DNA of 64,000 bases from Alphaproteobacteria bacterium (GCA_033763775.1 JANRJW010000014.1:89037-153036), one strand, 5' to 3'; counted from the first letter of the stretch, positions 4,426 to 62,499 are shown. The notes: generated by a model from the sequence alone, not told the origin. A program made the numbers and translations.

Positions 4426-4509
4426 TTCCCTCTCTGCGTTCCAGAAAGAAGGCCAGGGTGAGGATCTTACTTCCCCCTCTCCCTTTCAGGGAGAGGGTCG
4501 GGGTGAGGG
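4426..4509. repeat. Family-B palindromic repeat
   Basis: Contains ttccctctctgcg...ccagggtgagg followed by ccccctctccc-tttc-agggagaggg-tcggggtgaggg. Confidence 0.8.
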
Positions 4510-16473: not shown

Positions 16474-16956
16474 CTAGTGCGCCGAAAGCACGGATGATAA
16501 GCGCTGGTGATAAAGCTCGGCCAGCTCAGCAATGCCGCGCTTGATGGCATCCTGCTCCGAAACATAAGCCGAGTAATACTGGTTGGGCAGATTGTTATAG
16601 CTGCTGACATGGCGCAGGCTGCCGCCAGCTACCGACTGAGTTTCGCCAATGCGGTAAAGCTTGTAGTTGGAAACTAGGTTCACGTTATAGCGAGTCACCG
16701 TGCCATCACGCGAAACGCCAAGGCCGGCGGTCGTAATCGCAAGATCTGCAACCAAACGATAGGTCGGATTCACCGGCACCGCGCCACCCGGATTCAGCTT
16801 ATCTTCCAGCTGAATCTGCAGCTGCTGGCGCTGCGAGCGCTCCTGCGCGCTGGCCTCCACCACCACCCCCGCCACCGGCGAAGCCGCCGCTGGCACAGCG
16901 CTTTTAGCGCCATACATAGGCTGAAAACCGCAGGCGGATAGTAGGAAACACGTCAT
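16474..16956 (-). CDS. lptE: LPS-assembly lipoprotein LptE (RlpB)
   Basis: MTCFLLSAC lipobox, then GFQPMYG. Position between leuS and holA. The start codon lies inside a repeat; alternative ATG at 16974. Confidence 0.65.
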   Translation of the reverse strand: MTCFLLSACGFQPMYGAKSAVPAAASPVAGVVVEASAQERSQRQQLQIQLEDKLNPGGAVPVNPTYRLVADLAITTAGLGVSRDGTVTRYNVNLVSNYKLYRIGETQSVAGGSLRHVSSYNNLPNQYYSAYVSEQDAIKRGIAELAELYHQRLSSVLSAH

Positions 16957-17017
16957 GCCGGCGAAAGCCGGCATCCAGATTTGATAAGAACTGGATCCCC
17001 GGTTTCGCGGGGATGAC
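16952..17017. repeat. Family-A element (66 bp) at the leuS-lptE junction
   Basis: gtc-atgccggc-gaaa-gccggcat-ccag...ctgg-atccccg-gttt-cgcggggat-gac. Termini gtcat/atgac are inverted. Confidence 0.85.
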
Positions 17018-17023
17018 GATATT

Positions 17024-19588
17024 CTAACTAGCCACGACATTCACAATCCTGTTCGGCACCACGATGATTTTCCTGACCTCTTTATCCTTAAGCGCATCGC
17101 GCACGGTTTGCAACTCCATCACCACGCTTTCTGCCTTTTCTTTGGGCAGATCTTTGGCAAGCTGGATGGTGGTGCGCGTCTTGCCGTTAATCTGGATGGC
17201 AACGGTCACCTCATCCTCAGCAAGCAGCGCCGGGTCTGCTTTTGGCCATGGGCGCACCGACAGCTCGTCCTTGTGGCCGAGCTGCGACCAGCATTCTTCT
17301 GCAAGGTGCGGCAGGAACGGACAAAGAAGATGCAGCGCGGCTTCAAGCGCTTCTTTCATGACTTCCGGCGCAGCTTTGCCTGCACAGTCTTCCATCATGT
17401 TGGTCAGCTCGCGGATGCGCGCAATGGCCTTGTTGAAATGGAATTTCTCAATATCATCCGTCACCGCCGCAATGGTCTGGTGCGTTTTCTGACGCAAGTT
17501 TGCAGATGCATCATTTTCAACGGCAACTGCTGACGATGAGCTGGAAACCAACCGCCACACGCGCTGGATATAGCGCCACGCGCCTTCAATACCCGCATCC
17601 GTCCATTCGAGATCGCGATCCGGCGGCGAATCCGACAGCATGAAAAGGCGCGCCGCGTCGGCGCCGTAACTCTCGATGATATGGCGTGGATCCACCGTGT
17701 TTTTCTTGGATTTGCTCATCTTCTCGATGCGCCCGATAGTCACCGGTTTACCGGTTGCAATCTCTTTGCCTTCTGCCACCTCATCTGGCGAGAGCCATTT
17801 TCCTTCCGAAGATTTATAGGTTTCATGGCAGATCATGCCCTGCGTCTCTAAGCGTTTGAATGGCTCAGGCGGAACCTCATAACCACACTTGGCAAGAGCC
17901 CGCATAAAGAAACGCGAATAAAGCAAATGCAGCACCGCATGCTCAATGCCACCAATATAGCAATCCACCGGCAGCCATTTTTTCAAGGCATTAGGCTCTA
18001 GGGGATTGGGATCAGGGAGCGTTGCAAAGCGAGCAAAATACCAGGAGGACTCAAAGAACGTGTCAAACGTGTCTGTCTCACGCTCAGCGGGCTTGCCGCA
18101 GCTAGGGCAGGGGACGTGTTTCCATGTGGGGTGGCGCAAAAGCGGATTCCCCGGCTTATCAAACGTCACATCTTTGGGTAGCGCGACGGGCAGATCGGCC
18201 TCCGGCACGGGAACCACGCCGCAATCCTTGCAATGAATCACCGGAATCGGGCAGCCCCAGTAGCGCTGGCGGGAAATGCCCCAGTCGCGCAGGCGGTAAT
18301 TGATTTTTTCTTCGCCGCAGCCGATTTTTTTTAAAGCGTCTATCGCTTTTTTCTTGGCCTCAGTGACGTTTAGGCCGTTGAGGAAGTCGGAGTTGATGAG
18401 CGTTCCATCGCCTACATAAGGACCCTCACCCGCGGCGCTTTGCGCCGCTTCCCTCTCCCTGTCAGGGAGAGGGGTAGGGTGAGGGTGAACTACTGGCAGT
18501 ATCGGCAGCCCATATTTCTTCGCAAACTCATAGTCCCGCGCATCATGTGCCGGGCAGCCGAAAATCGCGCCGGTGCCGTAATCCATGAGCACGAAATTAG
18601 CCACATACAAAGGCACTTCGCGGCCATCAAACGGGTGAATGATTTTGAGCCCCGTATCAAAGCCTTTCTTTTCGGCTTTTTCGATGGCTTCTTCGGAGGT
18701 GCCGAGCTGGTTGCATTCGGCGATAAAAGTCGTGAGTCTCGAATTGCCAGTTGCCAGCTCTTTGGCAAGTGGATGGCCGGGTGAAATAGCGCAGAAACTC
18801 ATGCCGAAAATCGTGTCCGGGCGGGTAGTATAGATTTCGAGTTCTTCACTGGATGCCTGAGATTGGTGACTGACGACTTGCAACTTAAGCAGCGCGCCCG
18901 TCGACTTGCCAATCCACTTCTCCTGCATGATACGGACTTTGTCCGGCCACTCTTTAAGCGTTTCCAGCCCGGCAAGCAGCTCATCCGCACAATCAGAAAT
19001 ACGCAAAAACCACTGAGAGAGCCTCCGGCGCTCCACCAGCGCGCCCGAGCGCCAGCCGCGCCCATCCACCACCTGTTCGTTGGCCAGCACGGTATTATCA
19101 ACCGGATCCCAGTTCACTTCCGCTTCCTTGCGGTAGGCAAGCCCGGCTTCAAGGAATTTAAGGAAAAAAAGCTGCTCGTGCTTGTAATAATCCGGAAGGC
19201 AGGTGGCGAGTTCACGCGACCAATCATAAGAAAGGCCGATGAGCTTTAATTGCTCGCGCATGGTTTCGATATTTTTCAGCGTCCAGTCTTGCGGGTGGGC
19301 GCCGCGCTCAATCGCGGCATTCTCCGCCGGCAGACCAAACGCATCCCAGCCCATCGGGTGCAGCACATCATAGCCCTGCATACGGCGCGCACGCGCGATC
19401 ACATCACCCAGAGTATAGTTGCGCACATGCCCCATATGGATGTTGCCCGAAGGATAGGGAAACATCTCGAGGACGTAATATGAAGGGCGCGTTGCCGTGG
19501 ACGTCTGCGTTGTTTCAAAGGTGCGGTTTTGCTGCCAGTGGCGCTGCCACTTGGCTTCAGTTTCGCGGGCGTTGTAGCGTGGGGTCAT
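17024..19588 (-). CDS. leuS: leucine--tRNA ligase
   Basis: 854 aa. PYPSGNIHMGH (HIGH) and KMSKSKKN (KMSKS) motifs, collinear with LeuS. Confidence 0.97.
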   Translation of the reverse strand: MTPRYNARETEAKWQRHWQQNRTFETTQTSTATRPSYYVLEMFPYPSGNIHMGHVRNYTLGDVIARARRMQGYDVLHPMGWDAFGLPAENAAIERGAHPQDWTLKNIETMREQLKLIGLSYDWSRELATCLPDYYKHEQLFFLKFLEAGLAYRKEAEVNWDPVDNTVLANEQVVDGRGWRSGALVERRRLSQWFLRISDCADELLAGLETLKEWPDKVRIMQEKWIGKSTGALLKLQVVSHQSQASSEELEIYTTRPDTIFGMSFCAISPGHPLAKELATGNSRLTTFIAECNQLGTSEEAIEKAEKKGFDTGLKIIHPFDGREVPLYVANFVLMDYGTGAIFGCPAHDARDYEFAKKYGLPILPVVHPHPTPLPDREREAAQSAAGEGPYVGDGTLINSDFLNGLNVTEAKKKAIDALKKIGCGEEKINYRLRDWGISRQRYWGCPIPVIHCKDCGVVPVPEADLPVALPKDVTFDKPGNPLLRHPTWKHVPCPSCGKPAERETDTFDTFFESSWYFARFATLPDPNPLEPNALKKWLPVDCYIGGIEHAVLHLLYSRFFMRALAKCGYEVPPEPFKRLETQGMICHETYKSSEGKWLSPDEVAEGKEIATGKPVTIGRIEKMSKSKKNTVDPRHIIESYGADAARLFMLSDSPPDRDLEWTDAGIEGAWRYIQRVWRLVSSSSSAVAVENDASANLRQKTHQTIAAVTDDIEKFHFNKAIARIRELTNMMEDCAGKAAPEVMKEALEAALHLLCPFLPHLAEECWSQLGHKDELSVRPWPKADPALLAEDEVTVAIQINGKTRTTIQLAKDLPKEKAESVVMELQTVRDALKDKEVRKIIVVPNRIVNVVAS
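18423..18486. repeat. Family-B palindromic repeat in frame inside leuS
   Basis: ccctcaccc-gcggcgc-tttg-cgccgc-ttccctctccc-tgtc-agggagagggg-tagggtgaggg. Read on the minus strand as HPHPTPLPDREREAAQSAAGEG. Confidence 0.85.
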
Positions 19589-19796: not shown

Positions 19797-20306
19797 TCAC
19801 TTCACATTTTTCACGCGTAGTTCACGCGCGCGGGTAAGGATGGTGTCTTCCAGCTTACGCTCGGTGGCTTTATCCACCGCCTGGTCACGCCACTGACCGC
19901 CTGAAAACTTCTGGCGAAATAATGTGATTTTTACGCCGTCTGCGCGCAGGGTCTTGTCGAGAATCAGCGCATTGGCTTTAAAGCGCTCGCCGGGAGTTTT
20001 GGGGTCTTCATACCACTCGGTGATAATCACGCCGCCAAAGGGATCGGCGGAGCTAAGCGGCATGAAAGAAAGCGTGTCCAGCGTGGCGCGCCACAGGAAG
20101 CTATTGACGCCGAGCGGCGAGTTATTTTCCTCGCCCTTCTTGCCGCCCGCCAGCACGATACCATCATCACCGGTGAGCTTGCCGCGGCCTTCCCGCAGCT
20201 GATCTTCCAGCGATTGCGGCAGACCAGCACGCTCGGTCTTAACATCCGAACAGGCAAGCAATGCAAGGGGAGCAAGGGGAGCAAGGGCAAATAACAAATA
20301 ACGCAT
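19797..20306 (-). CDS. DUF3576-family lipoprotein
   Basis: MRYLLFALAPLAPLALLAC lipobox; LWRATLDTLSFMPL...DPFGGVIITEWY is characteristic of alphaproteobacterial DUF3576. Confidence 0.7.
   Translation of the reverse strand: MRYLLFALAPLAPLALLACSDVKTERAGLPQSLEDQLREGRGKLTGDDGIVLAGGKKGEENNSPLGVNSFLWRATLDTLSFMPLSSADPFGGVIITEWYEDPKTPGERFKANALILDKTLRADGVKITLFRQKFSGGQWRDQAVDKATERKLEDTILTRARELRVKNVK
20263..20288. repeat. Tandem 9-mer (gcaagggga x2 plus gcaagggc) inside the DUF3576 signal peptide
   Basis: Direct repeat encoding APLAPLA. Confidence 0.7.
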
Positions 20307-20374
20307 AAGCGACTCCGTGTAGTTCGGGGTCGGAATGTAGTGAAAAGGAAAGGAGGGTGCAAGTAATTGATGAT

Positions 20375-20400
20375 CCCCTCTCCCCACTGGGGCGAGGAGG
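20375..20400. repeat. Family-B hairpin
   Basis: cccctctcccc-actg-gggcgaggagg. Confidence 0.6.
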
Positions 20401-21860: not shown

Positions 21861-22526
21861 ATGACATTGGTCAACCGCCTTACTGAGATCCGTGCAACAC
21901 TCGAAAAATCACGAATAAACTCCCCGCTAGCCGCCCCTGAAACATGCCTTTTAGCTGCCTCCAAAGGGCAGCCGGCTGAGCTGCTGGAGGAGGCGATAGC
22001 TCTGGGTATCCGTGATTTCGGTGAAAACCGCGTTCAGGAAGCTTATGATAAGTGGCCGCTGCTTAAAGAAAAATACCCTCACATCAGGCTGCATCTGATC
22101 GGCCCGCTGCAAACCAATAAGGTGAAAGATGCGCTCGGCCTGTTTGATGTGATCCAGACGGTGGATCGGGAGAAGCTCGCGCTCGCGCTGTCAAGGCTTC
22201 AGGCTTCAGGCTTCAGCCTTCAGGAAAAACAGTTTTACATACAGGTAAATACCGGCGAAGAGCCACAGAAAGCGGGCATTTTCCCGAAAGAAGCGGATGA
22301 TTTCATTCGTTTCTGCATCCACGATTTAAAGCTACCCATCATCGGGCTGATGTGCATACCGCCAGCGGATCAACCACCCGCGCCGCATTTTGCGCTGCTC
22401 AGGAATGTGGCGCTTACGCACGGCTTGAAAGAGCTATCGATGGGCATGTCCGGCGATTATGATATCGCCGCGAGGATGGGCTCAAGCTGCGTGCGGGTGG
22501 GGACGGCGTTGTTTGGTAGCCGGTAA
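21861..22526 (+). CDS. yggS: PLP-binding homeostasis protein, YggS family
   Basis: LLAASKGQP...FGENRVQE...LHLIGPLQTNKVK...QVNTGEEPQKAG...LSMGMSGDY. Confidence 0.85.
   Translation: MTLVNRLTEIRATLEKSRINSPLAAPETCLLAASKGQPAELLEEAIALGIRDFGENRVQEAYDKWPLLKEKYPHIRLHLIGPLQTNKVKDALGLFDVIQTVDREKLALALSRLQASGFSLQEKQFYIQVNTGEEPQKAGIFPKEADDFIRFCIHDLKLPIIGLMCIPPADQPPAPHFALLRNVALTHGLKELSMGMSGDYDIAARMGSSCVRVGTALFGSR
22195..22225. repeat. Tandem heptamer array (aggcttc x3, agccttc, agg) inside yggS
   Basis: Direct 7-nt periodicity, read as LQASGFSLQ. The same heptamer (as gaagcct) forms one arm of the priA element at 30683-30757. Confidence 0.8.
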
Positions 22527-22598
22527 TTGGAGCTTCGGTAATTAGTGATTGGAAGCCAGCAATTTTTCCAATTACCGAAGCTCCAATTACCAATCACC
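22522..22598. repeat. Heptamer-arm palindrome between convergent yggS and the 22594-23010 ORF
   Basis: taattggagcttcggtaatt pairs perfectly with aattaccgaagctccaatta (20 bp) across a 26-nt loop. The arms contain both genes' stop codons. Confidence 0.85.
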
Positions 22599-23115: not shown

Positions 23116-23355
23116 CTAGGCTGTCACCAATAACGTGCAGCGCTCTGGCATAACTTCTGCCACGCCGCCAGAAATCGCAAATTCTTTTTTCTCGCCGCTC
23201 GAAAGCTCAACGCTGACCGTGCCTTCCTTCAGCGTCGCAATCACTGGCGCGTGGCCAGACAGCACACCAAACTCGCCCTCAGAGCCGGGCACGCCAATAT
23301 ATTCTGCTTCGCCATCAAAGAGCGTTTTTTCGGGGGTGATAAGTTGGCATTTCAT
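23116..23355 (-). CDS. atpC: F1 ATP synthase epsilon subunit, N-terminal beta-sandwich domain only (79 aa)
   Basis: LITPEKTLFDGEAEYIGVPGSEGEFGVLSGHAPVIATLKEG...ISGGVAEVMPERCTLLVTA stop. Sits downstream of atpD. The C-terminal helical hairpin is absent. Confidence 0.8.
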   Translation of the reverse strand: MKCQLITPEKTLFDGEAEYIGVPGSEGEFGVLSGHAPVIATLKEGTVSVELSSGEKKEFAISGGVAEVMPERCTLLVTA

Positions 23356-23426
23356 AGTTGCTGGTTCCTAGTTGCTGGTTGCTGGTTATTAAATTGCTAG
23401 CAACTAGCAACCAATAACCAGCAACT
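23356..23426. repeat. Heptamer-arm palindrome in the atpD-atpC gap
   Basis: Left arm agttgctggttcctagttgctggttgctggttatt; right arm tagcaactagcaaccaataaccagcaact. Units are gttgctg/gttatt. Confidence 0.85.
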
Positions 23427-24879: not shown

Positions 24880-25791
24880 CTAAACGGCTTCTGCGCCGCT
24901 GATAATTTCGATGAGTTCTTTGGTAATCGCCGCCTGACGGGTGCGGTTGTATTTGAGGTTGAGTTTTTTGATCATATCGCCGGCGTTGCGCGTGGCATTA
25001 TCCATCGCGGTCATGCGCGCGCCCTGCTCGGAGGCAGCATTTTCCAGAAGCGCACGATACACCTGCACGCTTAAGTTTTTCGGCAGCAGCTCGGCGAGGA
25101 TGTCCTCCTCAGAGGGTTCGTAGTCGTAAGAAGTGGCGAGTGATGAGTGGTGAGTGGTGAGTGTGTCGTTGGAAGGTTTCTCGCCACTCGCTACTCGCCA
25201 CTCGCTACTCAAAGGAATAAGCTGCTGCCATGTCACTTCCTGCGCGATGGCGGATTTGAATTTGTTGTAGACGATGTGACACACATCAAACTCGCCGGCC
25301 GCAAACCACTCGCGAATCAGCAGCGCCACCGGCTCTGCATCCGCAAACGTCACTTTCTTTTTCGGCAGGTCGAAATCGCCCGCGAAATAAGGCTGAAATT
25401 CAAGGCGCATCATGTCGCGCCCTTTGCGACCCACATAAAGCAGCTTCACCTGCTTACCCTGCGCGACCAGCTCACGCGCCTTGCGACGCGCACTGCGCAC
25501 AATCGAGCTATTGAACGCACCGCAAAGGCCGCGATCACCCGTTGCCACCACAAGGAGAATTTTATCCTGCTTACCCGTTCCAACTAAAAACGGATTGGTG
25601 GAGGTGTCGCGCTGGGACGCAGCGAGGCTCGCAATCATGTGCTCCATGGCTTCCGCGTAGGGACGCGCATTTTCTGCCGCCTCTTTCGCACGGCGAAGTT
25701 TCGCCGCTGCCACCATCTTCATCGCTTTGGTGATCTTCTGCGTCGATTTGACCGACTTGATACGGACTTTAAGGTCTTTGAGGCTAGGCAT
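24880..25791 (-). CDS. atpG: F1 ATP synthase gamma subunit
   Basis: [35 protein letters not shown]...[11 protein letters not shown]. Confidence 0.92.
25132..25209. repeat. Heptamer-arm palindrome (GTGAGTG type), about 78 bp, in frame inside atpG
   Basis: Left arm agtggcgagtgatgagtggtgagtggtgagtg; right arm ctcgccactcgctactcgccactcgctact. Read as [26 protein letters not shown] sister copy is in priA at 31390-31472. Confidence 0.85.
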
Positions 25792-26015
25792 CAGAGTCTC
25801 AGTTCTTGGAGTTTGTGATTGCTCTGGTTTTCATAGGTAATTGAATCTCCCAACTGTTGCTTGGCATTGAGTAAATCAACGCCATAAACATCACCCTGGC
25901 CAGACATTTCAATAACCGCATCCTTGCAAATTTTTATCTTCTTTGTGTCATTATTTGGCGCGGCTTTGAATCGTATGTAGCCAAAATTCTTATCCATATC
26001 GTACATGATTTTCAT
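25791..26015 (-). CDS. DUF2283-like small protein
   Basis: 74 aa. [16 protein letters not shown]...[15 protein letters not shown] fits the DUF2283 pattern (M-I-YD...YI...G-IGIEIL-A). ATGA overlap with the upstream ORF and TGATG overlap with the atpG start. Confidence 0.6.
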
Positions 26016-26566
26016 TTGCGTCCCCTTTCAGGAATCGTCACGCGCTCATTCTCAGGAACGCCAAGCTCTTCTAGAAGCTTGTTTAGACCACCGACTAAAT
26101 CTTCGAGTGTTTTAGCGGCGATAAATTTGCTGTAATTTTCAGTTGTTGATGCACCGCGCGCTTCCATCTGCGCTTTTTTATCATCTTCTTCAACCGGCGT
26201 GAATGCCTCATCAAACTTGAAAGTCTTATGTTTAATTTCTGAGAGTCTTTTTTTCAGCTGAAGATTGATATTATGCAGCATCTCGTCTGCGTTATTATCA
26301 ATCGCATCGGCATGCTCGCGTGCCTCCTTTTCAGTCTTAAAAAGTGATTTGAAATGCTCTCTTGCTTGATCAAGCGATAACCCAATATCAAATTCCAGCG
26401 CAGGGCCGTCAGCAGAGTCGGTGAATTTTGTTTGGACCAGTTTATCCGTATCGAGATAAATGCCCGGCAACTCGCCAAGAGCCTTAAACGCGCGCGCGAG
26501 TCCCTGATGAAGCCGGCGATGCGTTTCATCAGTAATATCGGCTAGGTATTTTAATTCTTCGCTCAT
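26012..26566 (-). CDS. hypothetical acidic protein (184 aa), no recognised family
   Basis: ORF from the ATG at 26566, 4 nt after the atpA stop. Lower GC than the flanks. The ORF-track TTG at 26590 would overlap atpA. Confidence 0.55.
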   Translation of the reverse strand: MSEELKYLADITDETHRRLHQGLARAFKALGELPGIYLDTDKLVQTKFTDSADGPALEFDIGLSLDQAREHFKSLFKTEKEAREHADAIDNNADEMLHNINLQLKKRLSEIKHKTFKFDEAFTPVEEDDKKAQMEARGASTTENYSKFIAAKTLEDLVGGLNKLLEELGVPENERVTIPERGRK

Positions 26567-26570
26567 GCTA

Positions 26571-28100
26571 TCAGGCAAACCTTTTCGCAATCTGCATGAT
26601 GACTGTTTTCAGACGATCTTCGATGGCATCATCCAGCTTCTGACTTTTTTCAATGTCGCTGATGATGTCTTTGCTCGCACCGCGCAGCTCAGCCAGCAGC
26701 GCCTGCTCGAACTTGCCCACTTCTTTGGTTGGGATGCCATCCAGATAGCCTTTCACACCGGCATAAATCACGCAGACCTGCTCAGGCGTGGAAAGCGGCG
26801 AGTATTGCGGCTGTTTGAGCAGCTCGGTGAGGCGCTGGCCGCGCGCGAGCAGCTTCTGCGTTGCGGCGTCAAGGTCGGAGCCGAACTGGGCGAAGGCTTC
26901 CATCTCGCGGTACTGCGCGAGCTCAAGCTTGATCGAACCTGCCACCTGCTTCATCGCCTTAATCTGCGCGGCAGAACCCACGCGCGATACCGACAGACCC
27001 ACGTTCACCGCCGGACGCACGCCTTTGTAGAACAGGTCGGTCTCAAGGAAGATCTGGCCGTCGGTGATCGAGATCACGTTGGTGGGAATATAGGCCGAAA
27101 CGTCACCCGCCTGGGTTTCAATCACCGGCAGGGCGGTGAGGCTGCCCGCCTTCATATCATCCGACATTTTGGCGGCGCGCTCAAGCAGGCGCGAGTGAAT
27201 GTAGAACACGTCGCCCGGGTAAGCTTCGCGTCCCGGCGGACGGCGCAGCAGCAGCGACATCTGGCGATACGCCACCGCTTGCTTGGAAAGATCATCATAA
27301 ATGATCAGCGCATGCATGCCGTTATCGCGGAAATATTCACCCATCGCACAGCCCGTGTAAGGCGCGAGGAATTGCAGCGGCGCTGGCTCAGAGGCGGTCG
27401 CAGCCACCACGATCGAGTACTGCATCGCGCCTTGCTCTTCGAGCTTTTTCACCACCTGCGCTACCGTCGAGCGCTTCTGGCCGATACAGACATAAATACA
27501 ATAGAGTTTCTTGCTTTCGTCGGAGCCAGCGTTGGCCGCTTTCTGGTTAAGGATCGTATCAATCGCAATCGCGGTTTTGCCGGTCTGGCGATCGCCGATG
27601 ATGAGCTCCCTCTGGCCACGGCCAATCGGAATCAGCGAATCAATCGCCTTGATACCAGTCGACATCGGCTCATGCACCGATTTACGCGCGATAATGCCCG
27701 GCGCTTTCACTTCCACACGCGCACGGGTGACATCTTTCAGGGGGCCTTTGCCATCAATCGGATTACCGAGCGCATCCACCACGCGGCCAAGCAGACCCTT
27801 GCCCACCGGGCAGTCCACAATCGCGCCGGTACGCTTCACCGTGTCGCCTTCTTTTACCTGACGATCATCACCGAAAATCACCACGCCGACATTGTCAGAC
27901 GCAAGGTTCAGCGCCATACCTTTCAGACCACCCGCAAACTCCACCATCTCGCCGGCCTGCACATTTTCAAGGCCGTAGATGGTGGCGATACCGTCACCCA
28001 CCGAGACCACCTGGCCGGTTTCCGACAGCTCTGCCTGCGGGCTGAATGATAAAATCTGCGCCTTGAGGATGTTTGAAATTTCCGATGCCTTGATATCCAT
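26571..28100 (-). CDS. atpA: F1 ATP synthase alpha subunit
   Basis: 509 aa. [15 protein letters not shown] Walker A; conserved throughout. Confidence 0.98.
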
Positions 28101-28141: not shown

Positions 28142-28222
28142 GTTGCGTAGGTTTCGTATGTTGCGCAGGTTGCGAATGATTTAAACCTACGAAACATTCG
28201 AAACATGCGAAACCTACGCAAC
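28142..28222. repeat. Heptamer-arm palindrome in the atpH-atpA gap
   Basis: gttgcgtaggtttcgtatgttgcgcaggttgcgaatg / cctacgaaacattcgaaacatgcgaaacctacgcaac. The right arm supplies the last two codons and the stop of atpH. Confidence 0.85.
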
Positions 28223-28853: not shown

Positions 28854-29795
28854 CTAGAATGGCGCCTTGACCATCATCGTGCAGGCAGAATAGACATGAA
28901 CTGAGTCCGGATCATAGCCTTGCGTATTTTGCACATTATAACGCGCGGGGATTTCATCCGTAAGGCAATAGCGCGAATTAGGTCCGGGTGAGCCAAAATA
29001 ATCTGGTATATTGCTAGAAAAATACGGCATATACCAGCTCAAGACCTCCCAGTTATTATACGAGGCGGCGCGCGCAATGCCGCTGAGCGGCATACCATCA
29101 TCGATTTTGCTGTCAAACGCATAGGCCTGCGGCGCGGTAAGCACCGTTATAACCCCGCTATCCGGTATGTCGGCAGAAAGCAGATAATAATGCCCGACAT
29201 CGGGTAAATACCCAACCCCGCCTATCTCCAGGTCATTCACATCATAATAGCTGAGGCTCCACATGGCAGGAGAGCCGTTAAACGATCCGCCATAGACCGA
29301 TGGAAAATAAACCCTGCCTTGATTAGGCGTGCTAGAATGGTAAACTTTTAACCCCTGAATCAGCCCGGCCTCCTGCATCCACCACAATGCGTGCTGCACC
29401 TCATGGGCGCCAACCGCACCGCCTGGCAGCGCTGTATTAAAGGCTGTGTGATTATGAATGATACTATTACCGTCGCCATCATATGCGCCGCCAGCCGTGA
29501 TGGCTGTGCCGGCAGGCGAAAACTGCGTGAAACCATAGCGGGCGGCATTGGCACAATCACCGGGCAGGCAGCGATATTTGGACTGAAATGCATGCACCGC
29601 GCTATTGAGCTCTTCAATTTCACCCACGGCCTTGCGAGTGACCCCCGCCTCCATGAGCGCATTGCCAGCCACCACACCACCCAACAACAACCCAATGACC
29701 AGCAACACAATCGACACTTCAACCAGCGTGAAACCACGCTTGGCGCTAGCGAGCGCCGTTCTGGCAGGTGTTGATGTGGTTCTGGTGGGTAGCAT
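28854..29795 (-). CDS. type IV pilin / pseudopilin-like protein with prepilin N-terminal methylation motif
   Basis: ...SAKRG/FTLVEVSIVLLVIGLLLGG (class III signal, Glu5) followed by an approximately 280-aa domain of no recognised family. Start placed at the ATG at 29795. Confidence 0.7.
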   Translation of the reverse strand: MLPTRTTSTPARTALASAKRGFTLVEVSIVLLVIGLLLGGVVAGNALMEAGVTRKAVGEIEELNSAVHAFQSKYRCLPGDCANAARYGFTQFSPAGTAITAGGAYDGDGNSIIHNHTAFNTALPGGAVGAHEVQHALWWMQEAGLIQGLKVYHSSTPNQGRVYFPSVYGGSFNGSPAMWSLSYYDVNDLEIGGVGYLPDVGHYYLLSADIPDSGVITVLTAPQAYAFDSKIDDGMPLSGIARAASYNNWEVLSWYMPYFSSNIPDYFGSPGPNSRYCLTDEIPARYNVQNTQGYDPDSVHVYSACTMMVKAPF

Positions 29796-29863
29796 GCAAT
29801 AAAGGTTCAGGCGTGTTGCTTTTTCTATATAACGAGAAAAAGAATAAATGATTAACAAGCCGC

Positions 29864-31987
29864 CTACAAAAACCCCACCGGATCGATATCTATCTTAATA
29901 CGCACGGAAGAGGGCGGTTTTACCGATTCCAACCAGCCGCTCATCAGCTCCGGCAGATTCACCTTGCGATCCGCGCGCACGAGAAGGCGCCAGCGATAGA
30001 GGCCGCGCAGGCGATAAAGCGGAGCAGGGGCGGGGCCTAGTAGGCGGATGACGGATGACGGATGACGGATGACAGGAAAACTAGCCGCAAGCTGCTTGGC
30101 TGTTTTGATGACCGCATCTTCTTTGCTGCCTTCCACAATTACGGCGGCAAGGCGAGCAAAAGGCGGCATCTTCGCGCTTTCGCGGGCGGCAAGTTCGGCC
30201 GCCACAAACTGATCGCGATCATTTGACGCCAGCGCCTGCATGACCGGATGATCCGGCTGGTAGCTCTGCAGATAGACCACGCCCGGGATTTGCTCACGCC
30301 CAGCGCGGCCAGACAGCTGGTGAAGCAGCTGATAGGTTTTTTCCGCCGCGCGCAGATCGCCGCCGCCAAGGCCTAAATCGCCATCCACCACCCCCACCAC
30401 CGAAAGCCCGCCAAAATGATGCCCCTTGGCGATCATCTGCGTGCCAATCAGCAGGTCGAGTTTTTTTTGTTCCATATCCGAAATAATTTGCGCCGCTTCC
30501 TTATTACCCGTCAGCTGGTCACTCGCCATCACCGCGATGCGGGCTGTTGGAAACAGCGCGCGCGCCTCCTCTTCAATGCGCTCCACACCGGGGCCACACG
30601 CCGCCAGCGACTCTTTCTCACCGCACGCCGGACAGACGGGTGGCAGCGGCTCGCGGTGGTGGCAGTGGTGACATTGGAGGAAGGGCTTTGGGCTTTGGGC
30701 TTTGGGCTCTGGTAAAGCAAAATCTCCCTGAAGCCTGGAGCCTGAAGCCTGAAGCCCATGCAACACCAGCCAGCTTGAACACTCCGCGCACTCAAAGCGG
30801 TGGCCGCAATGGCGACATAGCACCAACGGCGCATAGCCGCGCCGGTTGAGGAAAAGGAGCGCCTGCTCGCCGCGCGCGATGGCACTCGCCACTGCATCGC
30901 GCAGCTTTGGTGAAATGAACTGCGTGGCCGGCATTTTCTCGAGCCGCATATCGATCAGCTGCGTGGTGGGCAGGCAGGCGCCGCCGTGGCGCGCGGGCAG
31001 GCGCAGCTCGGCATATTTTCCTTGCTGGGCATTCAATACACTCTCCAGCGAAGGCGTGGCTGAGGCCAGTACCACCGGTATTTTTTCAAACCGCGCCCGC
31101 GAAACCGCCATATCGCGCGCATGGTAAATCACCTGGTCTTCCTGCTTGTAGGCCTGGTCGTGCTCTTCATCCACCACGATCAGCTTCAGGTTTCGGTAGG
31201 GAAGAAACAACGCTGAGCGCGCGCCCACCACCACCGGCGCAGCGCCGCTGGCAATCGCTTTCCACGCCTCACGTTTTTGTGCAGGCGTGACATGCGAATG
31301 CCATACCAGCGGGCGAAAGCCAAAGCGCGCTTCAAACCGCGCCATCCACTGCACGGAAAGAGCGATTTCGGGAAGGAGAATGAGAATTTGTGAGTGACGA
31401 GTGGCAAGTGGTGAGTGGTGAGTAATAGTATCTTTTTCTTTCTCGCCACTCGCCACTTGCCACTCGCCACTCAGCGCCTGCGCGATCGCCTCAAAATACA
31501 CCTCCGTCTTGCCTGAGCCAGTAACGCCATCGAGCAGCGTGACGGAAAAACCAGCTGCTAGTTTTTGGATGAGCGCATCCGCCGCCGCACGCTGGGCAGG
31601 CGAGAGCGTGGCAAGTTGGTAAGAATGGGATTGGGGATTCGATGCATTCTTTTTTCTTCCCCTAACCCCTAATCCCAAATCCCTAATCCCTAGCGGCAGC
31701 GCCATTTTCAGCATCAGGCCGGCCGGCGCACAATTATACCACGCCGCCCATTTTATAAATTCAATGAAATGCGGAGCAAAAGATGGCGCATCCAGCTTCT
31801 CGATCACCGCTTTTAGTTTCGCCTGCGGAATGTTTGCCGTGCCCGCACCCAGCACCAGACCAAGCGACGAGGCGCGCCCAAACGGCACACGAACGAGATC
31901 GCCACGTTCAAGCGCCATCCCATCTGGCACTACGTAGTCAAACCCGTGCGCCACGCCGGTAGGAAGTAGCACCTCAACTTGTTTCAT
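29864..31987 (-). CDS. priA: primosomal replication-restart helicase PriA
   Basis: [14 protein letters not shown] Walker A, DEEHD, Cys-rich zinc region [14 protein letters not shown]...CHHCHH...CPACG. Confidence 0.9.
30046..30073. repeat. Four perfect tandem heptamers (ggatgac x4) inside priA
   Basis: Direct reading. The complement gtcatcc equals the Family-A terminus. Read as IRHPSSVIR. Confidence 0.9.
30683..30757. repeat. Heptamer-arm palindrome, about 75 bp, inside the priA zinc-finger region
   Basis: gggcttt x3 plus gggctct, spacer, then gaagcct/ggagcct/gaagcct/gaagccc. Read as [25 protein letters not shown] between the two Cys clusters. Confidence 0.8.
31390..31472. repeat. Heptamer-arm palindrome (GTGAGTG type) in frame inside priA
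   Basis: gtgagtgacgagtggcaagtggtgagtggtgagt / ctcgccactcgccacttgccactcgccactc. Read as [25 protein letters not shown]. Confidence 0.85.
31622..31693. repeat. Heptamer-arm palindrome (TTAGGGG/ATTGGGG type), about 72 bp, inside priA
   Basis: aatgggattggggattcgatgcatt / cccctaacccctaatcccaaatccctaatccctag. Read as [24 protein letters not shown]. Confidence 0.8.
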
Positions 31988-32049: not shown

Positions 32050-32706
32050 ATGAAATTCTTTGTCGATACCGCCGATATTGCTGAAATCCGTGATCTCGCC
32101 GCCACCGGCCTGCTCGACGGCGTGACCACTAACCCAACACTTGTGGCCAAATCCGGCCGCGATTTTTTCGAGGTGCTGAAAGATATTTGCGCGGTGGTGA
32201 CCGGGCCGGTCTCCGCCGAAGTGACCGCCACCGACACGGACGGCATGATCAAAGAAGGCGAAAAGCTTGCGCGCATCGCCGACAACATCACCATCAAACT
32301 GCCGATGACCTGGGATGGGCTGAAAGCATGCCGCCATTTTTCGAGCAAGAACATCATGACCAACGTCACGCTGTGCTTCTCCGCGCCGCAGGCGCTGCTC
32401 GCCGCCAAGGCCGGCGCAACCTTTGTGTCGCCGTTTGTCGGCAGACTGGATGATATCGGCGAGGTGGGCATGAAGCTGATCGAGGATATCTGCACCATCT
32501 ACAAGCAGTATGATGCGTTGGAAACGCAGGTCTTGGTTGCAAGCGTGCGAAACCTGCAGCACATCACCGACGCCGCGAAACTGGGCGCGCATGTGGCGAC
32601 CATCCCACCAAAAGTGCTGCGCGACATGATTCACCACCCGCTGACCGACAAGGGACTCGCCACCTTCCTTGAGGATTGGAAGAAAACAGGGCAGAAAATT
32701 GCTTAA
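32050..32706 (+). CDS. tal: transaldolase, short type 3B (fructose-6-phosphate aldolase-like fold)
   Basis: [36 protein letters not shown]...KLPMTWDGL...[11 protein letters not shown]. Confidence 0.85.
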
Positions 32707-32708
32707 TT

Positions 32709-32772
32709 GTCATCCCGACTAAGCGGAGCGCATAGAGGGATCCTAAGATCCCTCGACGACGCTCGGGATGAC
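32709..32772. repeat. Family-A element (64 bp), intergenic
   Basis: gtcatcccga...gagggatc-ctaa-gatccctc...tcgggatgac; nested palindrome with inverted termini. Confidence 0.9.
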
Positions 32773-32788
32773 AGAATGCAGGAAATAG

Positions 32789-33520
32789 ATGAGTGCAAAA
32801 CCAACCATCCAAAACGCCCTCACCGAAGCCGATATCCGCGCCTACCTTAAGGCGCACCCACAATTCCTGCGCAACAACCCCGATATCCTGACTGATATCG
32901 CCTCACCATCGCGCGATCTCGGCGGCGGGGTGATTGATTTTCAGCAGTTCATGGTGAAAAACCTGCAATCCACCAGCCGCGATTTGCAAAGCAAATATGA
33001 CCTCCTCGTCGAATATTGCCGCGACAATCTTTCCTCGCAGCAGCAGGTGCATGAGGCCGCGCTGAAACTGGTGCGCGCCAAGAGCATCGAACAGCTGCTG
33101 GAAATCATTGCGCTGGATCTTGTCAGTTTGTTTGGTGTCGATGTGGTGCGCCTCGCCATGGAGTCCGATATTCAGGTGGACACCTCCTACGGCGAAAGCG
33201 ATTTTTCCGGCATCGTCTTCATCGCCCCCGGCACCTGTGACGCCGCGCTGGGCAAAGGTAAGCGCGTGAAACTGGTGGCAGATAGCACGCGCCATCCACC
33301 CGCCGGCTTTGATGAGATTTTTGCTGAATGTGACACGATGATCGAAAGCTGCGCGCTGCTGCGTCTCGATATGGACAGCATCGACCGGCAGGTCATGCTG
33401 GCATTTGGTGTGCGCAGCAAAGAGCGCTTCCACCCCGGCCAAGGCATTGAACTGCTGAATTTTCTTGCGCAGGTAGTGGCGCATCAGCTGGATCGCTACT
33501 TGGACGAAATGACCGTATGA
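32789..33520 (+). CDS. DUF484-family protein
   Basis: LTEADIRAYLKAHPQFLRNNPDIL N-terminus. Sits directly upstream of xerC and overlaps it (ATGA). Confidence 0.75.
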   Translation: MSAKPTIQNALTEADIRAYLKAHPQFLRNNPDILTDIASPSRDLGGGVIDFQQFMVKNLQSTSRDLQSKYDLLVEYCRDNLSSQQQVHEAALKLVRAKSIEQLLEIIALDLVSLFGVDVVRLAMESDIQVDTSYGESDFSGIVFIAPGTCDAALGKGKRVKLVADSTRHPPAGFDEIFAECDTMIESCALLRLDMDSIDRQVMLAFGVRSKERFHPGQGIELLNFLAQVVAHQLDRYLDEMTV

Positions 33521-35174: not shown

Positions 35175-35385
35175 ATTCCCGCTTTCGCCGCAGCAACGGA
35201 TGGTGTATGAGGCGAACTAAGCACCCGTAGCTCAGCTGGATAGAGCGCCTGCCTCCGACCGTGTCCGCCGAAGCCTTGGCGAAGGCGGAAGGCAAAGGTC
35301 ATAAAGCGCCCAATTCCCGCTTTCGCCGCAGCAATGGATGGTGTATGAGGCGAACTAAGCACCCGTAGCTCAGCTGGATAGAGCG
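35175..35385 (+). repeat. Tandem duplication (two 73-nt copies, 138-nt period, 1 mismatch) covering the tRNA-Arg upstream leader and 5' part
   Basis: attcccgctttcgccgcagcaa(c/t)ggatggtgtatgaggcgaactaagcacccgtagctcagctggatagagcg occurs at 35175-35247 and 35313-35385. Confidence 0.9.
35221..35300 (+). pseudogene. tRNA-Arg fragment: acceptor 5' strand, D arm and anticodon arm interrupted by an approximately 30-nt hairpin; T arm and 3' acceptor missing
   Basis: gcacccgtagctcagctggatagagcg matches the intact tRNA. Next come cctgcctccga, the insert ccgtgtccgccgaagccttggcgaaggcgg, then aaggcaaaggtc, after which similarity ends. Confidence 0.7.
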
Positions 35386-35435
35386 TTGCCCTCCGAAGGC
35401 AAAGGTCGGACGTTCGAATCGTCTCGGGTGCGCCA
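35359..35435 (+). tRNA. tRNA-Arg (anticodon CCG), CCA encoded
   Basis: Manual cloverleaf: gcacccg/cgggtgc acceptor, gctc..gagc D stem, ttgcc-ctCCGaa-ggcaa anticodon arm, ggacg-ttcgaat-cgtct T arm; 77 nt. Confidence 0.9.
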
Positions 35436-35559: not shown

Positions 35560-38262
35560 ATGCCACTGACACTGCAAGACCTGAAAGAGGCTACATCTCA
35601 AGCGAGATTCAATCGTAAAGAGTTAATCAGTTTAATTGAAGAGCATGGGCTGGTTGAGCGCGGCGGAAACAATAACTGGGGCGTGCCAGGACGCGCCGAT
35701 ATTAATCCGGTTTATATCCCTGATTACACAGAAATTAACAGCACCGTATGGAACAAGCTACTTAGAATCATGGAGCAGCTTGAAAAAGAAAAAGCGCCCA
35801 CCGAGACCGCCCCCAAAGCACCGCAGTGGCTGCATGATGAGTTGAAGAATATGCCCGAATGGGAGCTGGATGAAAGCCGGCTAGGCGAAAAGAGCGTCAC
35901 CCTGCGTAGCAAAGCCGCGCCGGAATTCGCCTTTGACGTGCCTCTGAGTGGCAATGATGTCATCGATAAAAAGACTTTCGATCTTTATGTTCAAAGCTAT
36001 GCAGGAAGTGAAAAAGAGCTGCTAAGTCTGACCAAATATCTTAAGCTACTTAGCGGACTTGATGAAAATGAGTGGAAGCTGGAGCGCAGCGCGCAAGGCA
36101 CGAAGCTCGTATCGCAGATGCAGGATATTCCGGACATTGAGCTAACCGGCAGGCCAGATCAACTGATCAAAAAAACAAACGACGCCAAAGAATATGCTGA
36201 GCTTTATCGAAATGATTTAGCGAAAAACCCAGCCGCAGCGCCTGAGCCCGCCTCCCCCGCGCCGCCAGAGCCTGAGATCCGCGCAGCGAAAAAGCTAGCC
36301 CCTGGCGCGGTGAAATCACCCGAGGAAGGTCAGCATGTGCTGATTCTTGACAGCAGCGCGATCATTGAGCTGGGGTCTTTTACTTTCGGTAAAAATGGCA
36401 ACAAGACCTCCCTGCTTGATATCGTGAAAGCCACGCAGAAGCTGCCGAATGTGAGCAAAATCATCATCCCCGATTATGTGGCGGATTTTGAAGTGCGCGG
36501 GCAGGGCACGCATTACGACGAAAAAGGCCAGCTGCTGGTGAGCGAAAGCATTCACGATAAAAAGAATTACGGCAATGACTATAAAGACGTGCGCGATAAC
36601 TTCCAGCGGCTCATCCACAATGCCGTGCGCCGTCATGTCGCGGCGGATGGCACGGTGGAATTTCTACATAATGCGGATGTGCCTGCTGAGCAGGTGAACA
36701 CCAGCATCGTCATCTGGGAGACACCCAAAGGCCGCGAATATGGCGAAGATATCTATACCAAGCTGAACGCAGGCAAGGTTCAGGAGGTGTTTGATAGCTA
36801 TGTCAGCAAGCCGGACGACCGAAGCTCGCGAAACAACTACGGTGAGCAGCAAATTGAGGCCATTTGCAACGACCGGGATTTTTACGCTGCGCCGGTGCAT
36901 ATCATCACCTCTGACAGGAACTACATCAGGGAAAGTAAGAACAATAAAACCGCAAACAAACAAAACAAAGCTTACCGCACCACGTTTGAATATCTTGATG
37001 CGGAGCTGTCATCGCGCGGACAGGAGCATCGCAATAAAATTGGCATGAGCTTCCAAAATGCTAAGGAAGCCTATGAGTATCTTCTGAACGACAGTAACGG
37101 AAAAATGGGAAAGGTTCAGGATGATAGTAGGCACATAACATCTCCCATCAGGCCTTTGATTCAAGACGGTATATTGGCTGCTGAAGCGGCGGGAGCCGCC
37201 GCCGCTGCGAGCCGACCCACTGTAACGCCAGCGGTAGCGCCGCGCCCAACTGTTGCGTTAAAGCCAGTGCGGGTGCCGGTGGTGCCTGCTGCAACGCCTG
37301 CTCCAACGGCTGTTCCAACTCCAGCTCCGGTGCCACCGCCCGCGGCGCGCACACTGGACGTTTCGCCGGAAGGCAGAGCATTTGGCGATTTGCTGCTGCG
37401 ACTGATGAATGATCGCGACCTTAACCGCTCTGGTTTTGCCAAGCTGATAAATGAGAACCTGCCACCGGATCAGTCCATGGATATTCAAACCGTGCGGGGT
37501 ATTTTATCTGGTAAGGAGCCGGTGAGCGAGGCACTGCTGGAGGTTATCGAAACCATCGCGATTGATCAGAACCCGCAGATCAATAACAAGGAAGATGCAA
37601 AGCAGGAGCTGCGGCAGGCTTGGGACAAAGCATGTGCGCAGCAGACGAACATGGCCAGCAGACAAGCTGTTGATAGCGCGGGTTACCATGGCTTTGGTGA
37701 TAAAGTTGCCGCGCTGTTTGAAAAGCGCAACGTGACCGACCCGGAAAAAATTGCAAGTGCCATCCGCGAGCAGATTGGCGTGCTGAAGCCGACCGAGCCG
37801 ACGATTGATAGCGCGCTGATACAAAAGATATTTGATGGTGAGCACCTGCCTTCGCCGGGGCTTGCTGCCGCGCTGCGCAAAGCGCTGGATAACCCCCCGG
37901 GTTTTGATGACGCCTATCAGAAAGCGCGTAGCGCGAAACCTCAGCCGCAAGAACTTTCAAAACTGCGTGAAAAAATCAAAAAACACTTCACGGATCTCGA
38001 TGAAACACTCGGCCTTAACGATATCGGCGTAGCAGGTAGAATTGGCCAGAAGCGCAATGTCGGCAGCTTGCTGGGCAAAGGCGGAAATGTGAGCTTTGAT
38101 GCCGAGCAGCTGGGAAGCTTTGGTTCAAATCTGAGCGGCTGGATGGAACGCGAACTCGGGGCAACACCCACGCAGGTCGCCGCGTTTCAAGCGGACTGGG
38201 AGCTTTTCAGCCGCGCCTATCTCGAAGAGCAGCAGAAGAAGCAGCTGAGCGCCGCGAAGTAG
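35560..38262 (+). CDS. large orphan protein (900 aa) with central PIN-like nuclease motifs, Pro/Ala linker and C-terminal HTH-like modules
   Basis: HVLILDSSAIIELG ... IIIPDYVADFEV ... GEQQIEAICNDRDF..VHIITSDRNYI resembles the PIN acidic-residue pattern. The Pro/Ala-rich linker is about residues 540-600. LLRLMNDRDLNRSGFAKLIN..DIQTVRGILSG is XRE-HTH-like. No overall family recognised. Confidence 0.55.
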   Translation: MPLTLQDLKEATSQARFNRKELISLIEEHGLVERGGNNNWGVPGRADINPVYIPDYTEINSTVWNKLLRIMEQLEKEKAPTETAPKAPQWLHDELKNMPEWELDESRLGEKSVTLRSKAAPEFAFDVPLSGNDVIDKKTFDLYVQSYAGSEKELLSLTKYLKLLSGLDENEWKLERSAQGTKLVSQMQDIPDIELTGRPDQLIKKTNDAKEYAELYRNDLAKNPAAAPEPASPAPPEPEIRAAKKLAPGAVKSPEEGQHVLILDSSAIIELGSFTFGKNGNKTSLLDIVKATQKLPNVSKIIIPDYVADFEVRGQGTHYDEKGQLLVSESIHDKKNYGNDYKDVRDNFQRLIHNAVRRHVAADGTVEFLHNADVPAEQVNTSIVIWETPKGREYGEDIYTKLNAGKVQEVFDSYVSKPDDRSSRNNYGEQQIEAICNDRDFYAAPVHIITSDRNYIRESKNNKTANKQNKAYRTTFEYLDAELSSRGQEHRNKIGMSFQNAKEAYEYLLNDSNGKMGKVQDDSRHITSPIRPLIQDGILAAEAAGAAAAASRPTVTPAVAPRPTVALKPVRVPVVPAATPAPTAVPTPAPVPPPAARTLDVSPEGRAFGDLLLRLMNDRDLNRSGFAKLINENLPPDQSMDIQTVRGILSGKEPVSEALLEVIETIAIDQNPQINNKEDAKQELRQAWDKACAQQTNMASRQAVDSAGYHGFGDKVAALFEKRNVTDPEKIASAIREQIGVLKPTEPTIDSALIQKIFDGEHLPSPGLAAALRKALDNPPGFDDAYQKARSAKPQPQELSKLREKIKKHFTDLDETLGLNDIGVAGRIGQKRNVGSLLGKGGNVSFDAEQLGSFGSNLSGWMERELGATPTQVAAFQADWELFSRAYLEEQQKKQLSAAK

Positions 38263-47135: not shown

Positions 47136-47243
47136 GTCATCCCCGCGAAAGCGGGGATCCAGTCTAAGCCGTGATTAGTGACGAAAGAATTTTTTTCCTC
47201 GCTGGCGCGAGTAACGCTGGATTCCTGCTTTCGCAGGAATGAC
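47136..47243. repeat. Family-A element (108 bp), intergenic
   Basis: gtc-atccccgc-gaaa-gcggggat-ccag ... ctgg-attcctgc-tttc-gcaggaat-gac. Confidence 0.9.
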
Positions 47244-48796: not shown

Positions 48797-48877
48797 GCAT
48801 TAGGGATTGGGGATTATGGGTTGACTTTAACGATACTCACTCTACTCCCTAATGCCTAATCACCAATGCCTAATGCC
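48797..48877. repeat. Heptamer-arm palindrome (cattagg/cctaatg type) upstream of ribF
   Basis: gcattagggattggggattatgggttg / ctccctaatgcctaatcaccaatgcctaatgcc. Confidence 0.8.
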
Positions 48878-48883
48878 TATTTT

Positions 48884-62355: not shown

Positions 62356-62372
62356 ACATTAACCCTTTTTTT

Positions 62373-62497: not shown

Positions 62498-62499
62498 AA

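Follow-up and report, generated by a model that had tools for sequence, protein, structure and literature searches.

Palindromic repeats with arms of tandem 7- to 9-nt arrays in the spacers and essential genes of an uncultured alphaproteobacterial lineage

Introduction

RPEs are palindromic elements that invade coding as well as non-coding DNA, with the genic copies in frame and translated into additional loops, and R. felis carries 728 copies, of which 85 are located in ORFs (PMC1166351; PMC3733652). The CGTC REPs, predominant in alphaproteobacteria, include RPE-4 and RPE-6, are also found as intragenic copies and have no known transposase (PMC3733652). Heptamer arrays have been described in other bacteria. 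In Xanthomonas, 70-75 convergent pairs of GGGAATC arrays are present per genome and could form stem-loops (Rehm et al. 2015, PMC4692102). These arrays mostly contain about four units, lie near the end of the upstream gene and differ in both length and sequence among close species (PMC4692102). The heptamer of Nostoc is GGGGAYT, and Rehm et al. 2015 interpret the arrays as G-quadruplexes (PMC4692102). According to the account of Mrazek et al. 2007 given in PMC4692102, polymerase slippage is the proposed cause of the excess of heptanucleotide repeats in prokaryotes. Finally, long inverted repeats are embedded in translated mitochondrial genes of Nematomorpha (PMC6649704).

The hairpin studied here lies in the spacer between atpH and atpA and belongs to a set of hairpins whose arms are themselves arrays of short tandem units. 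The original prediction, made from the sequence alone, knew of no described element class with such a design. This was too strong, as the convergent pairs of Xanthomonas (PMC4692102), the RPEs (PMC1166351) and the intragenic REPs (PMC3733652) each come close to it.

Genomic Region and Genomes Compared

The window, i.e., the complete 64-kb stretch of DNA that was analysed, is an alphaproteobacterial core region that contains mnmE-mnmG-rsmG-parAB, leuS, yggS, atpHAGDC and priA (Pfam). The host lineage is represented by uncultured "Rickettsiales bacterium" MAGs of about 55% GC, with relatives that are 53-92% identical. The window was compared with L002 (about 92% DNA identity), L003 (about 80%) and L095-L099. 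The first two were found by a genome scan, the further members by a PriA homologue search combined with contig look-ups. Array-free control loci came from a metagenome scan and belong to soil alphaproteobacteria with about 43% identical PriA. An independent Logan assembly is 100% identical to the window over 3,593 nt, three of the elements included.

Several features of this region deserve mention on their own. An ORF of 334 aa whose N-terminus bears a prepilin-type methylation motif is located between priA and atpH (28854-29858, minus strand). L002 does not have it, its priA and atpH being about 90 nt apart, and this absence from a 92%-identical genome points to a recent gene gain or loss. 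The interval between atpA and atpG (25791-26590, minus strand) holds a 74-aa ORF with a weak DUF2283 match and a 192-aa ORF without a family; in L097 and L098 this gap contains no ORF, and in L096 a different one of 126 aa. The product of atpC (23116-23355, minus strand) counts 79-80 aa in the window and in L096-L098 and consists of the beta-sandwich N-terminal domain alone; the C-terminal regulatory helices are apparently either absent or encoded elsewhere. In the DUF3576 gene (20263-20302, minus strand), 2.8 copies of GCAAGGGGA are directly followed by 2.1 copies of CAAATAA. These repeats sit in the N-terminal, probable signal peptide region, and the stretch differs in length in L002 (236 vs. 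140 nt). A tRNA gene is found at 35359-35432, followed by a 900-aa ORF (35560-38262) with a strong AT skew and no family match. The block at 41670-44792 is low in GC (47%) and probably represents a variable island for surface polysaccharides; it contains glycosyltransferase and sulfotransferase genes as well as two large ORFs whose family matches are weak or absent.

Structure of the atpH-atpA Spacer Hairpin

28142-28222, no strand assigned: target hairpin, four tandem 9-mers (GTTKCGNAK) and their inverted copies, atpH-atpA spacer

Tandem Repeats Finder identifies a 9-nt period in both arms of the target hairpin. Its units read GTTGCGTAG GTTTCGTAT GTTGCGCAG GTTGCGAAT and are followed by the inverted copies. 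Each arm is 40 nt long, the two are 80% complementary and, as scored, a single nucleotide stands between them. The predicted fold has an energy of -36.7 kcal/mol as RNA (z = -6.2) and -26.3 kcal/mol as DNA (z = -8.5), and none of 200 shuffles folds as well.

The hairpin overlaps the end of the upstream gene. The last codons of atpH on the minus strand, Val-Ala-stop, are identical to its outermost unit (28214-28222), and the protein thus ends in VA, compared with AA in the outgroups. The atpH end of L002 has the same gttgcgtag without the target hairpin, and a CGTC-REP-type palindrome occupies its atpH-atpA spacer at the place of the hairpin. The outgroup spacers are short.

A relative of the target was found in the distant genome L098 (293-373), in another spacer, secF-nfuA. 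The two are 77% identical, and their first two unit variants match (GTTGC.TAG, GTTTC.TAT). Position 6 of the unit is G throughout the window copy and T throughout the L098 copy. Taken together, the target and its relative indicate that the elements have been dispersed between loci and that their units change as a block. The occurrence of the 9-mer at another locus also makes it more likely that the VA end of atpH derives from the element than that it was the seed of the array. The atpH end shared with L002 and the short outgroup spacers had made it attractive to suppose that the target was seeded locally at this stop; the idea lost weight with the relative in L098, which has the same first two variants at another locus.

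Array Hairpins and Solo Arrays in the Window

Nine loci (2316, 22522, 23356, 25132, 28142, 30683, 31390, 31622 and 48797) had been proposed to share one hairpin design, and all nine are indeed inverted repeats with periodic arms. That these arms consist of 7-mers holds only in part: period 7 is enriched over shuffled sequence, but the target has a 9-nt unit and locus 22522 no clean array. The elements other than the target are as follows.

2315-2387, no strand assigned: intergenic hairpin, GTGGCTA/GTGCTGG ... CACTAGC x4, heptamer-like; 24-nt arms, 92%
22522-22591, no strand assigned: intergenic hairpin, GGTAATT GGAGCTTC GGTAATT; 22-nt arms, perfectly complementary
23356-23426, no strand assigned: intergenic hairpin, GTTGCTG-type heptamer arms; 35-nt arms, 80%
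48788-48879, no strand assigned: intergenic hairpin, GGGATTA/GGCATTA-type arms, between a maoC-like gene and ribF
25132-25210, minus strand: intragenic hairpin in atpG, in frame; sense units AGTGGCG and TCACCAC
30683-30756, minus strand: intragenic hairpin, priA site 3, in frame; GGCTTCA x4 and GCCCAAA x3 in sense orientation
31390-31473, minus strand: intragenic hairpin, priA site 2, in frame; 35-nt arms, 89%
31622-31692, minus strand: asymmetric intragenic hairpin, priA site 1, in frame; sense GGGATTA x5 vs. TAATCCC x2
30045-30073, minus strand: solo array (CGGATGA)4.1, i.e., (GTCATCC)4 in sense; priA site 4, in frame, no inverted partner
22194-22224, plus strand: solo array (AGGCTTC)4.4, in frame in yggS
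9322-9352, plus strand: C-rich solo array (CCCAATG)4.4 after T7, in frame in mnmE
18720-18765, minus strand: variable leuS patch, CTGGCAA x2

The nine array hairpins of the window are accompanied by further ones in the seven relatives. Five of the nine, and all solo arrays, are inside or overlap coding sequence, a placement that the original prediction had missed.

The intergenic copies fit tightly between genes. The hairpin at 2315-2387 fills the spacer between the stop of a solute-binding protein gene (2313) and the start of a permease gene (2395) and has stops in all six frames. The one at 48788-48879, with the TAA stop of the upstream gene inside its first unit, is likewise closed in all six frames. 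At 22522-22591, between yggS and an ORF convergent to it, the first unit contains the TAA stop of yggS, and two GGTAATT units stand 15 nt apart. GGTAATT units are also present at this site in L097; in L002 a CGGATGA-type hairpin is found instead. The hairpin at 23356-23426 fills the atpD-atpC spacer and adjoins the ATG of atpC, where L002 has an unrelated insert.

Three hairpins and one solo array are carried by priA (707 aa), all in frame. At site 1, one unit of the GGGATTA array reads TTG exactly where an in-frame TAG would occur. Site 2 is located after the Walker A helix, and its insert belongs to the same family as that of atpG. In the zinc-binding region, site 3 separates the two CxxC pairs, and its hairpin pairs fully only via G.T/G.U on the antisense strand. 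At the codons of the atpG insert, L002 has a CGTC-REP-like palindrome and L003 a GGGATCA hairpin; in the outgroups the native loop is short. The site of the solo array in yggS (22194-22224) carries a full GTGGACG hairpin in L002. The true start of mnmE is at about 9160, upstream of its array.

Periodicity and Folding

The significance of the 7-nt periodicity, which the original prediction left to statistics, was confirmed with dinucleotide shuffles. The window contains 12 period-7 arrays by loose criteria, compared with 0.5 in the shuffles (~24x), and 8 by strict criteria, compared with 0.02. Periods 5, 8, 10 and 11 show no excess over the background in the window. Across eight related loci, the density amounts to 0.9-6.8 period-7 arrays per 10 kb, two of these loci having mostly period-8 arrays. 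In array hairpins, the window and L002 are rich and L097 is poor. The four unrelated alphaproteobacterial priA loci contain no arrays.

The two strands of the intragenic hairpins do not fold equally well. The antisense strand reaches -52.8 kcal/mol at 25132-25210 and -47.3 kcal/mol at 30683-30756, compared with -36.9 and -33.6 kcal/mol for the mRNA strand. The arms of the intragenic copies differ by transitions, which give G.U/G.T pairs on the antisense strand and A.C mismatches on the mRNA strand; on the sense strand, about 14 A.C mismatches face 6 G.U, a small count of non-independent events. Among intergenic copies, the better-folding strand is not consistent. Avoidance of stop codons accounts for the asymmetry in one family, in which GTGGTGA would give TGA, and not in the others. 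The asymmetry of the intragenic copies may reflect selection against stable mRNA structure.

Rfam identified only the tRNA and none of the hairpins. The hairpins do not have the form of intrinsic terminators, their A/T runs being within the loop instead of 3' of the stem, and many copies are intragenic.

Reading Frames and Permissive Sites

All the interrupted genes have kept an intact ORF. This applies to priA in 8/8 genomes, with up to four inserts, to atpG in 6/6, and to yggS, mnmE and leuS with their inserts. The available part of leuS in L002 remains open with two CGTC-REP dimers inserted in frame (+42 and +39 nt). Intergenic copies have stops in most or all six frames; in intragenic copies, the sense frame is open. 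The open ORFs, the unit altered at the TAG and the closed intergenic copies together indicate that the inserts are translated as extra peptide loops. Judged by their reading frames, the intragenic inserts that are observed can be regarded as survivors of selection.

The solved structure of E. coli PriA (6dcr) lacks the segments at sites 2 and 3, which stand out against it as clean insertions. The site-3 inserts are patchy across 119 PriA proteins of the clade: the insert has at least 15 residues in 34 homologues, and a minimal 5-residue loop is found in 63.

Unit Families, Loops and Arm Orientation

Each locus had been thought to possess its own heptamer. This does not hold. The inserts at 25132 (atpG) and 31390 (priA site 2) are built from a common unit, reach 81% identity and agree in variant order and in reading frame; 22194 and 30727 both use GGCTTCA, and 31659, 48792 and 9324 are all GGGATTA-like. 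In L002, priA site 2 and the yggS insert share 97% identity over 67 aligned positions. The possibility that the loci would merge into one ordinary sequence family came true to the extent that they do fall into families, of which there are several rather than one. At least eight unrelated unit types are present, and G3 tracts occur only in the GGGATTA-like ones. Mobility had been judged unlikely because of this diversity of sequence; the shared variant order within multi-copy families and the relative of the target at an unrelated L098 locus speak against that judgement.

Between copies of one family, the loops diverge far more than the arms. In 19/20 array hairpins across the eight genomes, the G-rich arm is the 5' one, a property that is identical on both strands of a palindrome. 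Array-free REP-type hairpins are neutral in this respect. The arms are 20-40 nt long, and the array hairpins have no conserved terminal tag and no terminal inverted repeats distinct from the arrays.

Many loops contain a single A-run beside the G-rich arm, which is a T-run beside the C-rich arm on the other strand. Models of poly(A)-tailed retroposition or of a snap-back cDNA predict A/T runs that are paired or at the outer end; they were rejected because the single run is seen in the loop beside one arm.

Turnover at Fixed Sites

Period-7, -8 or -9 arrays and array hairpins are present in all eight genomes, where the same sites carry other units. The proposal that the architecture is kept while the sequence changes is thus borne out well beyond the window. 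Based on the codon alignment, the units at priA sites 1-3 are AGTGGCG in the window, AGTGGAC in L002, TAGGCAT in L095, AGTTCCC in L098 and CGTGGAA in L099. The same alignment has no insert at sites 1-3 in L097 and none at sites 1 and 3 in L098. The solo array of site 4 is built, depending on the genome, from ATCCGTC, ATCACCC, ATCACCCC, ATCATCGA, CACGAAA or CACTCGG. Its unit and its period (7 or 8) vary, and its length is nearly constant. Homogenisation by slippage, in line with the slippage-based mechanism originally suggested, is the simplest account of such solo-array sites.

At priA site 2, the elements of the window and L002 are 69% identical in flanks that are about 92% identical. Almost all patches of extreme divergence in the alignment of these two genomes correspond to array elements or to the second palindrome class described below. 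A 29-nt patch of leuS has been rewritten in L002 as (CCGTCCA)4, the dominant unit family of that genome, with which its priA and yggS units agree. The length of the patch is unchanged, and the event resembles conversion or a templated replacement more than an insertion.

Comparison of filled and empty sites (priA sites 2-3 and atpG) revealed no target-site duplications. The native loop is replaced by the element and does not flank it, which is not the structure of a MITE. As different element classes occupy the same codons in sister genomes, re-use or targeting of the sites is required.

Coexisting REP-Like Palindromes and Enzyme Search

Two further classes of palindromes, without array arms, occur beside the array hairpins.

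Window 16951-17018, 32706-32790 and 47136-47243: second family, CGTC-tagged REP dimers
L002 9105-9205, 11977-12081, 17936-18058 and 18613-18734: second family, CGTC-tagged REP dimers
Window 301-416, 4475-4497, 18416-18487, 20372-20395 and 62371-62499: third family, ccctctccc-N4-5-gggagaggg

Members of the second family are inverted pairs of a unit with a CGTC, an AT-initial 8-bp stem, a GAAA loop and a CCA tail. The copy at 16951-17018, for instance, reads CGTC, ATGCCGGC, GAAA, GCCGGCAT and CCA, has an inverted partner and qualifies as a CGTC REP. A palindrome related to these dimers sits in atpG of L002. The leuS copy of the third family (18416-18487) is in frame and encodes the peptide HPHPTPLPDREREAAQSAAGEG. 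Its PLPDRERE peptide recurs at site 1 of the L099 PriA (P0012).

The motif GTCATCC is found 23 times in the window, 3.7x the 6.3 expected (e.g., at 438, 452, 30046-30073, 32709 and 47136). It forms the head of the CGTC REPs and is repeated four times as the array of priA site 4. This double role hints at an origin of some arrays from REP ends that were repeated in tandem.

Among essentially all ORFs of the 64-kb window, Pfam and NCBIfam scans found no transposase, RAYT (IS200/IS605-type Y1 transposase) or reverse transcriptase; the original prediction had named the latter two as possible associated enzymes. The enzyme scan yielded only a housekeeping XerC/D-type recombinase, MutL and HolA.

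Origin of the Array Hairpins

We consider it moderately likely that the array hairpins, whose structure, periodicity, in-frame location, family relationships, persistent sites with changing content and restriction to this clade are described above, are clade-specific REP/RPE-like palindromic repeats with array arms, dispersed, homogenised by slippage or conversion and filtered by selection on ORFs. Such elements, about 70-90 nt long and with arms made of 7-, 8- or 9-nt units, would be dispersed in a copy-like manner, several unit families coexisting per genome in a few to many copies each. They would persist only in permissive places. One kind would be short operon spacers, where they are often flush with or overlap stop or start codons; the other would be variable surface loops of proteins, in which they would be translated. 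Selection would eliminate frame-shifting copies and those that bring in a stop. Replication slippage, template switching, or conversion between arms or copies would quickly homogenise the units and both arms, and such fast homogenisation would let the unit sequence drift as a block with the hairpin design kept. Permissive sites would be re-used or their content overwritten, leading to a turnover of content much faster than that of the flanking genes. Mobility, its mechanism and the dynamics of slippage and conversion belong to what the comparisons suggest. A host function is dispensable for explaining the data. Several observations argue against this explanation. The elements have no separate terminal inverted repeats, target-site duplication or conserved tag, and the 64-kb window encodes no transposase, RAYT or reverse transcriptase. 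Arms far better conserved than loops are not expected from plain copying and pasting with later neutral decay. The rewriting of the leuS patch in L002 at constant length has the look of conversion or templated replacement, and the different element classes at the same codons of sister genomes demand re-use or targeting of sites.

A purely local origin, in which slippage amplifies a local 7-9-mer and a fold-back template switch inverts the array without movement between loci, is rather unlikely. It would fit the identity of the outermost 9-mer of the target with the Val-Ala-stop of atpH, which L002 also has without this hairpin, as well as the yggS and maoC-like stops that lie inside first units, the resemblance of GGTAATT to the conserved CGGTAA end of yggS and the extension of the heptamer periodicity at 2316 into the end of the upstream gene. 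Solo arrays that change their unit in place at nearly constant length, and the bacterial heptamer excess that PMC4692102 reports to be ascribed to polymerase slippage, are in line with it too. However, near-identical elements with the same variant order are found at unrelated loci of one genome (81% and 97%), the family of the target appears in a different spacer of L098, and the leuS unit of L002 matches those of its priA and yggS. As the sole process, local genesis is contradicted; it probably has a share in the in-place drift of units.

It is very doubtful that the hairpins are functional structures, selected as terminators or attenuators, as mRNA stabilisers or as protein-binding arrays with one unit per 7-9 nt, in which case selection would hold the complementarity and the changes between arms would represent covariation. 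Many copies are inside the essential priA, atpG, leuS, yggS and mnmE, where a terminator would be harmful, although several others stand exactly between the cistrons of the atp operon and of an ABC-transporter operon. The arms do stay complementary at sites where the units differ wholly between genomes, the units of a family change together, as with a co-evolving binding protein, and arm orientation is strict. Against this, the hairpins are patchy among close relatives, unrelated palindromes substitute for them at the same site, and decayed or one-arm copies exist (31622, 22194, 9322). Moreover, the mRNA strand of intragenic copies has A.C mismatches and the antisense strand folds better, and Rfam gave no match.

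We attach little probability to a templated writer, that is, a putative polymerase, primase-polymerase or short-template reverse transcriptase that would add G/T-rich units to the 3' ends at breaks or nicks. Extension of both ends would place the G-rich arm on the 5' side in every case, in the form (unit)n ... (reverse-complement unit)n, and a change of template would alter the units genome-wide. The hairpins would then have been written rather than transposed, by a clade-specific templating of inverted G/T-rich 7-9-nt units that can overwrite without a change in length. Candidates for this improbable writing are a short-template polymerase or reverse transcriptase, or the annealing of single-stranded repeat DNA at replication forks. 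If true, writing would explain three features together: the G-rich 5' arm, seen in 19/20 array hairpins with array-free REP-like hairpins neutral, the joint switching of all units of a family between genomes and the much greater likeness of arms than of loops between copies. The coding patch rewritten at constant length is likewise what it would produce. On the other side, a candidate enzyme is not encoded in the 64-kb window, whole-element copying would explain the shared variant order better than new synthesis on a unit-length template, a single genome holds several unit families and periods, and the orientation rule could have been passed down from one ancestor that all families share. Chance or an assembly artefact can be practically disregarded given the shuffle comparisons, the 100% identical Logan assembly and the presence of the design in seven other assemblies.

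The REP/RPE-like array palindromes that we favour bear on two general questions, namely how transposase-free palindromes such as RPEs and CGTC-type REPs spread, and what causes the over-representation of heptamers in bacteria. Three palindromic insert classes compete for the same sites, and their content turns over within about 8% divergence. As priA, atpG and leuS record the events in frame, population metagenomes could reveal the elementary steps. Any proposed mechanism has to accommodate the strict arm orientation and the change of units in blocks. In practical terms, the inserts inflate protein lengths, break alignments and MAG gene calls and create clade-specific peptide loops.

Comparison with Known Systems

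Arms made of arrays of 7-9-nt units from many families, heavy colonisation of essential genes, rapid block-wise turnover at fixed sites and strict orientation form a combination that we have not found described. Parts of it have counterparts in several systems.

Like RPEs, the array hairpins are small palindromes inserted in frame in ORFs that are left intact, they are absent from orthologues, and the host lineage is labelled Rickettsiales. RPE families hold a recognisable consensus; here, the arms are arrays, and the units switch between close genomes. RPEs are not known to be built of tandem 7-9-mers, and no transposase is known for them. The G-rich arm, almost always 5', also sets the array hairpins apart, and their host, at about 55% GC, does not belong to Rickettsia.

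The convergent Xanthomonas pairs resemble the present design in having two arrays of the same unit close together, and GGGATTA/GGGAATC-type units occur here too. In Xanthomonas and Nostoc, a single G-rich unit is dominant and 89-93% of the arrays are intergenic, whereas here many units with periods of 7, 8 and 9 are found, many of them in essential genes. Unlike the arrays of Rehm et al. 2015, most units of this clade (GTGGCGA, GTTGCTG, GGTAATT) cannot form G-quadruplexes. The heptamer excess of Mrazek et al. is matched by the specific over-representation of period 7 in the window, but polymerase slippage leaves the inverted partner, the dispersed families and the periods 8 and 9 unaccounted for. 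In the Nematomorpha, both arms encode conserved protein regions; here, variable loops hold the inserts, which many orthologues lack.

REPs and REPINs (Di Nocera 2013; Bertels and Rainey 2011) are short palindromes as well, often arranged as head-to-head dimers that make up larger hairpins, and vary between close strains. The array hairpins differ from REPs by their lack of a tetranucleotide tag, of a unit with an 8-9-bp stem and a 4-5-nt loop, and of a CCA tail, and their arms contain no internal palindrome. True CGTC-REP dimers nevertheless coexist with them in the window and occupy the same sites as array hairpins in relatives. One link between the two is the array of priA site 4, (CGTCATC)4, in which the head sequence of the local CGTC REP recurs in tandem.
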